A stretch of DNA of 62,716 nt, counting the filler, from Stramenopiles sp. TOSAG23-6 (Eukaryota): assembly GCA_900128565.1 (NCBI GenBank). It is 27 parts of 27 records of this genome, joined end to end, with 100 filler letters (N's around TTAATTAATTAA, not from the genome) between each part and the next. Parts side by side here need not be neighbours in the genome. Positions count along the whole stretch, not along the records: positions 37,345 to 39,570 come from LT638202.1; positions 39,671 to 41,894 come from LT638203.1; positions 41,995 to 44,216 come from LT638204.1; 24 more parts are not named here. One strand, written 5' to 3'. Of the stretch, positions 37,734 to 43,694 are shown piece after piece. A program made the position numbers and the translations under genes. Each line of letters begins with the position of its first letter. Within the stretch, counting starts at the first letter, position 1. A model generated the notes under the pieces. That model did no database searches. It was not told where the DNA came from and saw only the letters and a list, made by a program, of their open reading frames with translations.

Positions 37734-39204
37734 ATGCCTTTGTTCTCTGAGAATGTAGAGAAACCAGTGTCGTCTACAGAGAAACCAGTGTCGTCTACAT
37801 CGAATCACATAGGCGGCCAATCTCAGAATATTTCGTTTTTGGATGATGTCTTTGGCGACGATACACTGTGGTATAGTGATCCAGAGGACTATGTCCCTGA
37901 AACTAGTCATGGGATATCATCCGATGATGAGTTTTTAGATAATATGGATTTTAACCTTCCTTCTTGTTCAGATTCAGCAGAAGAAGACGAGGCATCCGTT
38001 GGTTATGTCGACCCAGCGTTATACACTGATGGTTGTGAGTTTCCTAGTGCTAGTACTAGAGAAGGCGCGTCCAATTCTTTAGATTTCGATGACATTTTAT
38101 CATCTACAAAAGAGTATACTGATACTCGTGGCAGGAAACAAAACTCGATTTGGAGACAAAAAGTATTCGATGGCTCTGCGCAAAATGGTTCATCGACTGG
38201 TATTGCAAAGCGAACAAGGGCACACCATAATGTCCAAGGGAAATGGGAAGATTTCGACGAAGCTCTTGAAGAGGCGGATGTGGATGCATGGGTACCTGAT
38301 TCTAATGATTTAGATGAAGCTGATCTGACATATAGGAATTTTTGTGATAATTTTGTCAATAACAAAAATGTTGATTCATCATCTACAGAAAAAAACGTTG
38401 AGAATTCTGAAAATATTGTGTCTCCTTTAGATCTTGATGGTGATGACTTAGATGGAGATTACATTCCTGAAGAATCGAATGGTGTTTTAAAGAATGCTTT
38501 ATCGGGTGGAGGAAATTTATATGATCATTTTCAACATTATAATATTCATGTATCTTTTATTTTTTTCAATTTCGAATTTATTTTTTTTTTGGTTTTCGTA
38601 CGAAATTTCGTACCTAACAAATTTTACAAAAAAAATATATTTTTCACAATACATGTATCCAAAAGAGAGTTGGAAGATTTGTTACAGGAACCTAATGATG
38701 ATTATGCGAAATGGGCAGGTGTGTCAAATACTACACGAAATTCTATAACAAATGAAAAGAGTGAAAAGAGTGAAAAGAATGAAAATAATAAATTAGTATC
38801 AAGGCATTCAAAATCTCGAAGGAGTACACGAAATAAATCACAAGAATTTTGTACTACAAAAACAAAAAATACAACAAAAACATCTACAAAATGTGAAAAA
38901 ATATGTAGTGTAGATGTAGGTACGGATTTTCATATAAAAAATGTTGATGAGGATACTACGACTGAAAGTACAGTAGGTGTAAATAAATGTTCATATTGTA
39001 ACGGTACAGAAAATACAAATAATACAAATAATACAAATAATACAAATAATACAAACAATACAAATAATACAAACAATACAAAAAATGATTTTATTTGTAA
39101 AAATTGTCGTTTATGGCATCGAACTACTGAAAAACGAAGGCCAGTTTTTCTTGACCGTCAGCAATATATAAGACTTCAAAACCAACTTCGAAGACATTTA
39201 CAAT
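37734..39204 (+). CDS. GON4L-like acidic nuclear protein, 5' part
   Basis: IAKRTRAH and RLQNQLRRHLQ motifs, recalled as resembling GON4L; family intron near 38549-38654. Confidence 0.5.
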
Positions 39205-39753
39205 GTATGTTTTATTTTTTTTTCAATTTTTTGTCTAAATTTTTTTTTCAATTTCGAATTTATTTTTTTTTCAATTTTTTGTCTAAATTTTTTTTTTCAT
39301 ACGAAATTTTGTACCTAACAAATTTTTTAGATTTTTTTTTTTAAATAATTTTTTTTCATACGAAATTTTGTACCTAACAAATTTTTCAAAATTTTTTTTG
39401 AAATATTTTTCCAAAATACATTCAAAATGAACAATGAATCAGCAAAAGTTGCTTTATATCACTCATATAATGCAAAATTAGCATCTGAGAAAGCAAATCG
39501 TTGTGTACAATTAGCATTATCATCTGTCGTCCAAGCCATTGAATATACAACAGTAAACCCTAACCCTAACNNNNNNNNNNNNNNNNNNNNNNNNNNNNNN
39601 NNNNNNNNNNNNNNTTAATTAATTAANNNNNNNNNNNNNNNNNNNNNNNNNNNNNNNNNNNNNNNNNNNNTGGAAAAATATTTGAAAAAAAANTCGTTAG
39701 GTACGAAATTTCGTACGAAAAAAAATTCGAATTTGAAAAAAAATAAAACATAC

Positions 39754-40449
39754 AGGGGATTGGCGACAGTATATAACGAGTACGCTTCATTACAGATTCT
39801 CAGATGTTCTTTACCACCCTGTATTGTAAAGAAATATTTTTTCAGTACAAAAAATGGTAAAAATGTTAGGTACAAAATTTCGTAGGAAAAAAAATGCATC
39901 ATTCATACCAAAAGAACATACATGATAAATACCACCGGATACAAGTCCATCTTTCCATTTTTTATCTTCTCTATTTACATACTTTTGCATCTCACTTATG
40001 ATAAGTTTTCCATCACGACCATGTGTAGGTAATTCGTGGATACATTCAACATTATTTTTTCGAAGAGGTTTTTTAAGATCGTCCATAATGCCATCCTGAA
40101 TTTTTGTCATTTCCTTGTCTAAACGGCTTGCACAGTAAGGTATTTGTTTCATCATTCCAAAAGCAACATCTATAAAGTCTTGCCTCAAATCAAAAGCATA
40201 TTCCAAGAGACCACGCGTACGAAAATGATGATAACAATGTACAAGACGGGGGAATAATTGNAACAAACGTCGTAAAATAGCAAGACCGACGAAATTAGCA
40301 ACTAGCACCTTCAAAAAAGAACGACCCTCCAGCTTTCTTGATACGATCTGTAAAAGGGGCGGTAGAGTGGAATTGCCTCTAACATATTTAGTTGTGTGGA
40401 AAAGTAATGCCGCATATATCACCCATTGTTTGATCAAAGCATGTACCAT
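39754..40449 (-). CDS. SGPL1: Sphingosine-1-phosphate lyase, 5' part
   Basis: LPTHG, WKDGLVSGGIYH|GGKEH..AYSLYTVANPL; the first intron is GT-AG. Confidence 0.85.
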
Positions 40450-40841
40450 AATTTTGAACGGTTGGTTGTGGAACACACTAAGAGGAACAGTGTTTGGACG
40501 ACTTGTGTCAAAAACAAGACTTCTAAGTTCCACAAAAAACAGTGTCACTTTTTATCCGTTTTTCGTGTTGTTCTATTGTGATAGGAGCGAAGTCAGAAGT
40601 CAGGGTCGAAAGTCGGAGCGAAAAAAATGATTTTTTGAGTTCATCATCTGGTATTGAAGATATTATATTGAAGAAAATAATGTTAAAAATATTGAAGAAA
40701 AAAATGCTACAATGATTTTCAACAACCAATAATAATTGTCACAACGATTTAACTTCATCAAATACACGTTGTAGCCTGCCACCTCCGAGAATAGCGACAG
40801 CATAATTTATTTTTAAACACATACTACAGTATAGACCACAC

Positions 40842-41840
40842 ATGCCTAAATGGATAGATATTCCAGCACCAGCTTTACTCGAGATTGGATTGTTTCTACC
40901 ATTTCACGACGTTCTTTCTCTAAGTATAGTGTCTCGACCTCAGTATCCTCTACCTCTATCTCTTCATACTCTTCACCATAGAGTTAAAACATTACTTTGC
41001 CTCCGTGACAAGAGTGCAGCAAATGATATTGTTTCATTTGCTCAACGCTTCTATATCACGACACTTTATATTTGTGTTACGGGTGCTAATGATCTATTAC
41101 AGCTATTATGCCCATACACCTACAAGAACAAGCCTTCGGTTCTTTGTAGTATGAATGATGAAGCCAATGGAAATGCTACAAAAATTTGCCCCCTATATGC
41201 TCAACACTTGAAAATATTGAAAATTAATAATAAGCAACAGCAAAAACGTCATACTCTACCAATCACGCCACTGCGTTATGGACTTAAATTCCTACATCAT
41301 TTAGAAATTACAGGAGACGTCAGTGATATTACAGCAATACATGTATGTAGTGTTTTCAATTTTTTTTTTCGTACGAAATTTCATACCTAACATTTTTTTT
41401 CCTAAAAAAAAACAAAAAAGTAAATTTTTTAAATTATTTTTCACTCTACTTTCTTTAGGTCCTACCTAACAAAAATGATATTTTTTTTTTAAATATTTTT
41501 CACTCTACTTTCTTTACCAAATTTAAGAAGTCTGACTCTAAATAATGTTTCGAATATAGATTTAGTACTGCTTCTATCCGGTATAAATTTGAAATGCCTT
41601 CGGTTGGTAACATGCCACGATATTTTTATAGGTTTGACACTTACTGATGAATCATGGGGTCAGAATTTAAAGCAATTACAGATAAATAATTGTACAACAA
41701 CAGGTGGTAAAATAGATACGATTTTTGCGTATTTACCAAGTTTGAGGTATATAGCTCTACCTGCTTGGATGGTAGATGATATTGGATCATTAAGTAATAT
41801 ATTGAGTTTAAAGTCACTTCAACTAAATGATTGTTTAAAT
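40842..41840 (+). CDS. F-box-like / leucine-rich repeat protein, partial
   Basis: IPAPALLEIGLFLP..VLSLSIVSR; LPNLRSLTL, LPSLRYI and LKSLQL repeats. Confidence 0.65.
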
Positions 41841-42096
41841 GTATGTTTTATTTTTTTTTCAAATTTGATTTTTTTTTCATACGAAATTTTGTACNNNNNN
41901 NNNNNNNNNNNNNNNNNNNNNNNNNNNNNNNNNNNNNNTTAATTAATTAANNNNNNNNNNNNNNNNNNNNNNNNNNNNNNNNNNNNNNNNNNNNAATATT
42001 TCAAAAAAATCTAAAAAAAATTGTTAGGTACGAAATTTCGTACGAAAAAAAAAATCGATTTTTTTTTTTCGGTAAATAAAAAAAAATAAAACATAC

Positions 42097-43694
42097 ATCT
42101 GCTAAACGTTTAAATAAAGAAATTTCCATTCCACTTTTCCGTGCTTTTTCATGACGTACATGTAGTGTAAAAAAAAATTACAAAAAAAATTATAAAAAAA
42201 TTGTTAGGTACGAAATTTCGTATGAAAAAAAAAATTAGAAATTCATATAAAACGTACTAAAGGAGAAAGTTGTTTATGATCTCCTATTAAAATAAAAGTA
42301 TCCGCAAAACGAAGAGGACCTAAAACAATAGGTTGGGTGATTTGACTAGCTTCATCAATGATACAATGAGAAAATTTATATTTTTTTTGCATTCCATTTA
42401 AAAAAGATGATCCTGGAGCAGACATACATGTATTTTGGAAAAATATTTCAAAATTTTTTTTTTAAAAATTGTTAGGTACAAAATTTCGTACGAAAAAAAA
42501 AATTCATACAAAAATTTGTAAAAAAAAAAAATAAAACATACATGTAACTGCTACTAAATTTGTCCTACTAGCAATTTTTTCTATCAATTGAACAGGTTGA
42601 ATTGATGATTGTTTTGAATGTAGAAGGGTTGGGGTTTCTTTGATGTTTTGTTTTTCGTGATTTTTGTTAGGGTTAGGGTTATTATATTCATGTTGTAAAG
42701 ATTCTAATGTAAATTTTTGTATTTTTGGATGAATTCTTTTTTGATTGCCTATTCTCACAATATTATTTACATTTTTTTCAATTAATTTAAGTAATAAATT
42801 ATCTACAGCTGAGTGAGTATGAGATGTTACCAATATTCTACGATTTTCATATAAAAGAGCCCGAATTAAAAATGAAACCGTTGATGTTTTCCCGGTACCC
42901 GGCATCCCTTGAATTAAATGATAATCATCTGCACGAAATGCGTGTCGAATTGCATTTTTTTGTTGGTCATTTAGAAGAAACCAATCTTTGATTAAATCTT
43001 GTTTCATTTGGTCTTTTATTGTATTTTTTGTATTTTTTGTATTTTTTGTATTTTGTATATTTTGTGTATTTTTTGTATTTTTTGTATTTTTTGTATTTTT
43101 TATATTTTTTGTATTTCGTGTTGCAAGTAATTCCTGTGTTGACGGTATTTCCATATCCTCCGAGTACCATGGTAAAATTGTACCAATTTTTATACCTAAT
43201 GAATTTTGAATTTCTTCTTGACTTTGATGATTTTCTGGATTTTTTTTAGTAAATTTTGGCTTTTCTAAATCCACAATTAATTTTCTTCTTTTTTCATCAC
43301 CTTTTGTTTGTGTAAAGGATGTATCCTCTTTTTGGCGACATACTTTTTTTCGTGCATGTATTGTACATTTTTTTTTGTTTCGTAAAAAATCGTTAGGTAC
43401 AACATTTCGTATGAAAAAAAAATTCAAAAAATTCAAAAAATTGTTTAGGTACAAAATTTCGTATGAAAAAAAAATTCAATTTGGAAAACGTATAATTTCG
43501 CCAGAATGTACAAATAATTGCATCAAATTATCTCTACATAATTTTAAATTTACTAACACTTCATCCTTATCAATTCGCCAATACCAACCCTTACCTTGTG
43601 CACCACGTGGAGCTGCAGGTAATAAGTCCCTACATTTACTATATTATAGAATAATATTTCAAATTGTTTTTTCTTAGTACAATTTTTTTTTCCT

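Follow-up and report, generated by a model that had tools for sequence, protein, structure and literature searches.

A family of probable introners with locus-specific acceptors and an altered U1 snRNA in a stramenopile genome

Introners are introns of one sequence family that lie at many unrelated loci and whose removal restores the coding sequence. Those of Chrysochromulina sp. carry their 5′ splice site with them and take the 3′ site from a 4-bp target-site duplication (TSD), without a terminal inverted repeat (TIR) (PMC9860276), and IE1 of Micromonas pusilla has a TIR and a 3-bp TSD that provides its ag acceptor (PMC11282704). The introners of Amoebophrya show direct repeats of 3-5 nt, inverted repeats of 8-20 nt and highly variable ends, and no U1 was found there (PMC7789003). 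In Fritillaria borealis and F. pellucida, transposon-derived introns bear YAY at both boundaries, 34-44% have a 3′ AT and only the major spliceosome is present; donors are largely non-GT (AG/AC, AG/AT), adaptation runs via U2AF paralogues and m6A, and the two U1 versions have identical 5′ ends (PMC13326754). Alterations of U1 fitted to an unusual donor are reported to be rare, with cases in Entamoeba, Mastigamoeba and perhaps Physarum (10.1101/2022.06.08.495308), and the ISL2EU transposons (PHIS superfamily) duplicate a 2-bp AT within an A|AT|T target (PMC4482050). Here we describe a family of ~100-nt introns in Stramenopiles sp. TOSAG23-6 (assembly GCA_900128565.1; 6,236 contigs, 21.1 Mb), starting from a window, the whole analysed stretch of 62,716 nucleotides, in which 27 separate contigs of ~2.2 kb each are joined by artificial N linkers.

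We observed a repeat family whose copies covary with their insertion sites in two bases, leave open reading frames when removed and are skipped at one RNA junction, as well as a U1 gene with a changed 5′ end. We consider it probable that a single explanation covers these observations: one mobile family with a 2-bp target duplication, whose copies are removed as GT...NT introns with the help of a matching U1.

The element family and its two-base junctions

The family is non-coding and in short has the form GTAYGTTTT...TACCTAAC...AATAC; its consensus runs from GTAYGTTTT through a T-rich tract, CRTACGAAATTTYGTACCTAAC and a T/A tract to TTTTTCCAAAATAC or TTTCACAATAC. The core 22-mer has 4,262 exact matches in the 21 Mb of the genome, against 0 for a reversed control, and 0 in viral contigs. 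In a strict set of 82 copies, chosen without reference to the flanking pairs, the median length of the element together with the pair that follows it is 99 nt. Among 249 loosely called copies the donor is GTATGT in 125 and GTACGT in 95. In a separate set of copies, the branch-box A lies 30-56 nt (median 38) from the intron end. Whole-length similarity between nearest neighbours is 0.90 (0.41 when shuffled), and subfamilies exist. Many introns of one sequence family are thus found at unrelated loci.

The earlier note on this DNA had proposed that the element duplicates an AT of its target, and the seven exon ends that it named (165, 418, 651, 817, 35249 and 45250 on the + strand, 3561 on the − strand) are all AT and stand directly before GTAYGT. 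In 95 copies from stretches not chosen by flank, AT precedes 68, far beyond the 9.8% AT in the flanking exon (p ~5e-47), and base counts of T 89 at −1, A 73 at −2, C 39 at −3 and G 51 at +1 bear out a CAT|G(T) proto-splice context instead of CAG|G. Since AT is self-reverse-complementary and may reflect target preference, only non-AT sites can decide on duplication. In the strict set, the upstream and downstream pairs are the same in 63 of 82 copies (permuted mean 46.8, maximum 58 in 20,000 rounds), and 10 of the matching pairs are non-AT (permuted mean 0.97, maximum 6), which rules out a duplication of fixed AT. Genome-wide patterns show 1,557 copies with AT before them, 170 with GT and 158 with TT; the terminal TAC is followed by GT in 56 of the 170 GT-preceded copies as compared to 12 of the 1,557 AT-preceded ones (odds ratio ~63, duplicates included). 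In 161 de-duplicated copies, among which GT and TT flanks had been deliberately enriched, the end is TT in 18/36 of those preceded by TT and GT in none; of those preceded by GT, 11/27 end in GT and one in TT. A longer inverted repeat would predict AC after GT, where GT was seen. The pairs match within insertion sites and not between them, as a locus-specific target duplication would have it by the criterion of PMC9860276. Base −3 does not covary between the junctions (p=0.17), so the duplication is 2 bp long and one of 3 bp is not supported.

Copies whose pairs differ (X/AT) are more diverged than non-AT concordant ones, with a median similarity to other copies of 0.61 vs 0.72 (p=0.003). This comparison covered 233 of the 249 loosely called copies; ten loci selected by flank had been left out, as had copies shorter than 70 or longer than 135 nt. 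Inheritance of GT or TT ends from one copy to the next was not supported in the same set, nearest neighbours sharing their end type in 21/34 cases vs 17.4 expected (p=0.18). Duplication at insertion followed by later change would fit these concordance data; the test does not tell which of the two pairs changed. The same data bear on the view that there was no mobility at all, old introns having been homogenised by conversion and selection, with a splicing rule that makes the acceptor resemble the exon end. Copies do vary widely, their median pairwise similarity being 0.75 once homopolymers are compressed, and U1 pairing alone could explain the exon-end CAT (see below). We nevertheless regard this view as very improbable given the common 22-nt core, the whole-length similarity, the subfamilies and the higher concordance of copies that have close relatives; moreover, we know of no splicing step that compares an exon-end pair with an acceptor pair.

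Intron removal and the altered U1 snRNA

Cutting out the element plus two bases leaves the frame (~177 nt) open in 140 of 158 copies, while cuts at +0, +1 and +3 give 42, 37 and 37. Homologues in ASCC3 and gamma-tubulin align without gaps across the AT junctions. In the ATP synthase beta gene (locus L028, identified with Pfam), polyA metatranscriptome contigs omit exactly 91 nt that lack a terminal AG; the skipped segment reads AT..AC and becomes GT..AT after a slide of two bases. This joint is present in run X3 and in run X8, which belong to studies P2 and P4; the X8 contig is 586 letters long, differs at 4 of them and has 115 letters on the shorter side of the joint. Runs X1 and X5 gave no joint at this intron (four of the eight runs listed, compared over 3,681 of the locus's 10,000 bases). 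Removal of the element restores the coding sequence in those 140 frames and probably at one RNA joint.

The acceptor is rarely AG, in which respect the family departs from U2-type introns. In 172 copies, under a scoring that favours AT, AG and matching ends, we counted AT 131, TT 15, AG 12, GT 9, AC 3 and CT 2; the 82 strict copies include 66 with AT and 3 with AG. The earlier note had held that the duplicated AT supplies the acceptor. Its derivation from the target duplication stands, but AT is not fixed, and TT, GT or CT occur as well. Canonical GT-AG introns that use in-frame AGs slightly downstream would offer a conventional reading, and indeed an in-frame AG lies within 30 nt in 39 of 91 non-AG copies and AG occupies the family position in 12 of the 172. 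With no such AG in the other 52 of 91, an RNA joint without AG that contradicts it at one junction, and the gap-free homologue alignments over AT junctions in ASCC3 and gamma-tubulin, we consider this reading extremely improbable.

The assembly holds a U1 small nuclear RNA (snRNA) gene at L034:349-508 (E 3e-13, below the gathering score), whose 5′ end AAACGUACAUG differs by three changes from the AUACUUACCUG of the Rfam consensus and is complementary to CAT|GTACGTTT; the complement of this altered end is CATGTACGTTT. The donor consensus of the family, CAT|GTATGTTT, departs from the textbook at −1, +4 and +7, and U1 is altered at exactly the three facing bases. It is predicted to out-pair textbook U1 at 95/95 donors (mean −10.1 vs −1.9 kcal/mol). 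From this donor match the U1 contig appears to belong to the organism, and the altered U1 very probably functions in splicing its introns. A second, canonical U1 was sought and rejected, as the textbook 11-mer occurs 7 times vs 10 for a control and the Rfam search returned the altered gene only. The altered pattern has 0 matches in metagenome contigs, a collection that may omit this genome's own records. Weak −2 donors carry the stronger +4 C more often (47/72 vs 30/113, p=3e-7). Besides the 2-bp duplication, pairing with this altered U1 also explains the AT at exon ends.

Elsewhere among the spliceosomal RNAs, U2 GUAGUA, U5 loop 1 and U6 ACAGAGA are unchanged vs the Rfam consensus, and a donor complementary to U1, a U6 ACAGAGA box and a U2 branch-pairing region are all present, as in U2-type introns. 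U12-type introns have the donor RTATCCTT; the family's donor is different, and U12 and U6atac were not found in the assembly, which is possibly incomplete (U11 and U4atac were not searched for). U2AF1 was not identified among 15 CCCH matches, of which the one inspected is a CCCH-RING protein, presumably CWC24-like, and the model of the U2AF large subunit gave 5 partial matches, none above the cut-off. The U5, U2, U1 and U4 genes follow one another head to tail inside 640 bp (L034:9-645, G000 C1146), with gaps of ~2, 23 and 5 bases, and may form one shared transcript.

Pairing of U1 with the donor places the cut at T|GT, and we hold the GT...NT register to be highly likely. A slide by two bases would turn the true introns into NT-GTAYGT...TAC, of AT-AC type, possibly removed by a minor spliceosome. 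The RNA joint is equally compatible with AT..AC, the branch box TACCTAAC resembles the U12-type box, and only this register yields a methionine at gamma-tubulin intron 2 that is conserved in 110/113 homologues, in a region whose sequence is otherwise divergent too. Against it, the U1 pairing is in the GT register and puts the cut between those bases that face C8 and A9, gamma-tubulin intron 3 demands the GT register (F in 110/113 homologues), the first intron base would vary between A, G, T and C, and U12 and U6atac genes were not found in the incomplete assembly. The slid register also brings stops into three discordant copies: of 54 such copies, 3 are open in the GT register only, 0 in the slid register only, 42 in both and 9 in neither. 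Taken together, we judge the slid register to be quite improbable. Separately, residues 298-305 of the L115 gamma-tubulin, before intron 2, show a two-residue insertion (HQ) and several changes in an otherwise conserved motif, perhaps the footprint of an old excision or else an error.

Spread of the family, copies in the window and source assembly

The earlier note described the element as an introner or miniature inverted-repeat transposable element (MITE) with a GTA...TAC inverted repeat. An introner-type family is what we find. The label of MITE or DNA transposon is weak and unproven: there is little of an inverted repeat, and a search that covered part of the flanks of one of eight transposase matches turned up none sharing the element's ends. 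The terminal bases GTATGTT and, reverse-complemented, GTATTTT agree at 6/7 positions, a short match whose first three pairs were set by the search pattern, and single copies agree at 6-7 of 10 bases in 66/95 cases. Profile searches of the assembly returned DDE_Tnp_4 five times (four at identical coordinates), DDE_3 twice and DDE_1 once; CACTA and hAT gave 0 matches, with silent controls. The DDE transposase-like open frames span 420-1,080 codons, lie on G000 C4153, C2432/2433/2439/2440, C304, C2340 and C439, and have domains of Harbinger, IS630/Tc1 and pogo type. No conserved fold joins the element ends in the four copies that were folded (z −1.8 to −4.1, structures differing). For a cut-and-paste transposase as the motor, we see roughly even prospects.

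A transposase-free route has been proposed for introners that lack TIR and TSD (PMC10996645). In our case, the same introns, spliced in the same way, could have spread through the spliceosome, by reverse splicing into R-loop DNA or by intron circles, or else by repair guided by short homology, in which the element's end-to-end junction TACAT|GTAYG pairs with the target. The weak inverted repeat and the lack of a linked transposase speak for such a route. Downstream exons also start donor-like beyond the per-step background (G 51, GT 20, GTA 13 and GTAYGT 4 of 95), as exemplified by the copies at 38550, 42257 and 42541, and the upstream side shows no such extension (ACAT in 6/30 CAT copies). 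Where the downstream exon starts with GTAY, its +4 base equals that of the intron in 14/16 copies (p=0.01, post hoc), with no trend in the 227 other copies; this match keeps the route alive and hints that a minority of copies inserted under the guidance of homology. Copies are moreover nearly all in the sense strand of coding sequence (140/158 frames open in sense, 28 in antisense). However, exact reverse splicing would leave an intron 3′ end without a variable target pair, similar copies do not inherit their ends, and copies with AT upstream and GT downstream are often frameless and chimeric-looking (4/7 examined). We therefore consider transposase-free spread unlikely.

In the explanation that we prefer, a ~100-nt mobile element would insert thousands of times into exons and double 2 bp of the target, mostly NT and usually AT, within a CAT|G context. 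Every copy would supply a donor, a branch-box-like motif (TACCTAAC) and a U-rich tract, and the major spliceosome would excise the element together with the downstream pair (GT...AT, also GT...TT and GT...GT), restoring the mRNA exactly. The changed 5′ end of the host U1 would pair with CAU|GUACGUUU, such that insertions after T, and best after CAT, would be well spliced and retained. A filter of this kind on surviving insertions, with U1 pairing at −1 to −3, would account for the higher share of T at −1 (94%) than of A at −2 (77%). Probably the acceptor is picked by its distance from the branch box, with non-AG ends tolerated, and we lean slightly towards a drift of old acceptors to AT.

A wider and more tentative view, which we rate a little below even, is that the introner invasion recoded the protist's whole intron boundary rule, with CAT|GT...CAT|G replacing CAG|GT...CAG|G. 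U1 would have been rewritten at three bases, one of them the reader of the final exon base, and nearly any NT would serve in the second step if it lies at a fixed distance from the branch point. If true, this would be a major spliceosome with a non-AG default acceptor whose donors are still GT. Both the AG acceptor and the 5′ end of U1 rank among the most conserved parts of splicing. Here one system would tie the gain of introns to the proto-splice-site idea and to the evolution of the spliceosome, with one family supplying all introns detected, its non-AG acceptor coming from its own 2-bp footprint and a rewritten U1 matching it. Standard gene finders are predicted to mis-splice this lineage.

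Besides the in-frame AGs and the intron 2 methionine given above, several observations weigh against our explanation. A cut at +5 leaves 131/158 frames open, so the frame tests allow +5 as well. The RNA evidence consists of one intron seen in assembled contigs with the register not fixed, and an intron-less allele would give the same picture, in which case the 91-nt joint would show an empty site with one AT. The compensation between −2 and +4 loses its significance when subfamilies are taken singly (p=0.13 and 0.09). AT ends occur in 14/27 GT-preceded and 17/36 TT-preceded copies, which needs later change or another route. The letters of the minimal inverted repeat double as splice signals, and element ends are absent beside the DDE reading frames, in the covered flanks of 1/8 matches (1,088/2,487 bases). 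Finally, the genome-wide element counts contain assembly duplicates and chimeras.

The stretch 38540-42545 of the window contains nine copies, three of which are truncated by contig ends. On the + strand, the 105-nt intron at 38550..38654 has the non-consensus donor GTATCT, a CAT end and CATGTATC at both junctions; its AT duplication stands at 38548..38549 upstream and at 38653-38654 downstream, and since its length is a multiple of three and it has no stop, the frame is no proof of removal. On the same strand follow a 217-nt AT...AT copy with two branch-box cores, whose removal opens the frame (39205..39421), a degenerate copy with a duplicated 3′ half and an uncertain acceptor at 41510 or 41513 (41343..41510), and a truncated copy with AT upstream (41841..41894). 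On the − strand, a truncated copy at 39671..39753 has CT at the upstream exon end, and the 103-nt copy at 39819..39921 has AT upstream, yet a canonical CAG acceptor. Three more copies lie on the − strand. The one at 41995..42096, in a DNA2-like helicase gene, is truncated and has AT upstream; the 98-nt copy at 42160..42257 has TA upstream, a CAT acceptor and GTACGT again at the start of the next exon; the 114-nt copy at 42428..42541 (GTATGT...CAT) has the 11-bp junction repeat TACATGTATGT, and its frame is kept by +2 (and +5) removal and lost by +0, +1 and +3. A DNA2-like superfamily 1 helicase exon, also on the − strand, occupies 42542..43475 (Pfam AAA_11, E 4e-24). The artificial linker at 39571..39670, which has no strand and recurs at 41895-41994, marks a contig boundary and not biology.

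Elsewhere in the window, the intron of the TOP6B-like gene (25092..25181, +) has an AT acceptor, and its exon does end in AC at 25091, as had been reported; a two-base slide of the register creates a stop. The exon carries HATPase_c_3, the TOP6B name itself being that of the earlier note. On the − strand, a helicase gene copy at 3781..3898 has TT on both sides, a non-AT duplication, and a copy at 3288..3394 has CT upstream but AT downstream; if the upstream pair is kept, the protein reads ...VST-VRS, and in the slid register ...VSN-VRS, where homologues mostly have L or F. The 129-nt ASCC3 intron at 35250..35378 (+) shows AATATAT at both junctions and matches the relative P0001 without gaps after removal; related ASCC3 loci were sought in metagenome contigs and none was confirmed. 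The longer junction repeats that had been listed at 42428-42541, 42160-42257 and 38550-38654 and in this ASCC3 copy are present, yet repeats of at least 5 bases are not enriched as a class over flanks shuffled among copies (16/95 vs 14.4, p=0.29).

Some copies are irregular. A second ASCC3 copy (35989-36075) lacks the usual 3′ end, possibly through an assembly deletion; its best join gives I vs D in five homologues, and it was excluded from the evidence. Doubled cores, or a copy inside or directly after another, occur at 39205-39421, 41343-41510, 43402-43454, L012:7452-7514 and L054:2550, and degenerate tandem core-like repeats lie beside a contig end at 37345-37520, with no donor motif seen within 90 bases upstream. 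The genes with the strongest codon bias (L114, L053, L075, L098), named from their translations as alpha-tubulin, two ribosomal proteins and EF2, appear as single long frames without a family intron. Short CCCTAA telomere-like repeats within reading frames (39556-39570, 42667-42681, 1114-1122) encode NPNP runs. An Rfam scan over the whole window gave zero matches.

The window includes four near-identical contigs (9363-18602) and one duplicate pair (28030-30259, 58204-60410). At gamma-tubulin, L115 and L116 share one first exon with two different continuations beyond intron 1, from which it appears that the assembly makes chimeras at the element. In the gamma-tubulin tree, the organism groups with oomycetes, brown algae and Platysulcus (100/99), with two EukProt proteins as its closest relatives there; the branching inside the clade is not settled, and the placement is confirmed to the level of stramenopile.

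Comparison with known systems

A search of the literature on GT-AT introners, protist U1 coevolution and MAST-3 introns did not find this system, with most subscription papers outside its scope, and the covered parts of the supplements of two introner surveys (12/14 files, one incomplete) contain neither a MAST-3 entry nor the core motif. Our results uphold the reading as introners whose acceptor derives from the target, once AT is widened to NT, and the matched U1 is the main addition to it.

Like the introners of Chrysochromulina and Micromonas, the family is short and present in high copy, brings its own donor, takes a locus-specific duplicated acceptor and leaves an exactly restored mRNA. 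Unlike them, it has a 2-bp duplication, and its acceptor is AT, TT or GT rather than AG; the host U1 is altered here, whereas that of Micromonas is standard. In Amoebophrya, too, non-canonical introns recur and have direct repeats at their junctions, but here there is one family with a fixed GT donor and a matched U1. The 2-bp AT duplication resembles that of ISL2EU, and DDE_Tnp_4 frames exist in the assembly without a found link to the element ends; the context here is C-AT-G with a variable first base, in contrast to a fixed AT in A|AT|T. With Fritillaria the family has in common YAY at both boundaries, a frequent 3′ AT and, judging by the snRNAs found, a major spliceosome only. Compared to Fritillaria, GTAYGT donors are kept, the U1 sequence itself is changed and the lineage is unrelated. 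As in Entamoeba and Mastigamoeba, the U1 5′ end is altered towards an atypical donor consensus. Here, however, one U1 has three changes, including the base that faces −1, as compared to two for Entamoeba and a single one for Mastigamoeba, and the change accompanies an introner invasion and non-AG acceptors.

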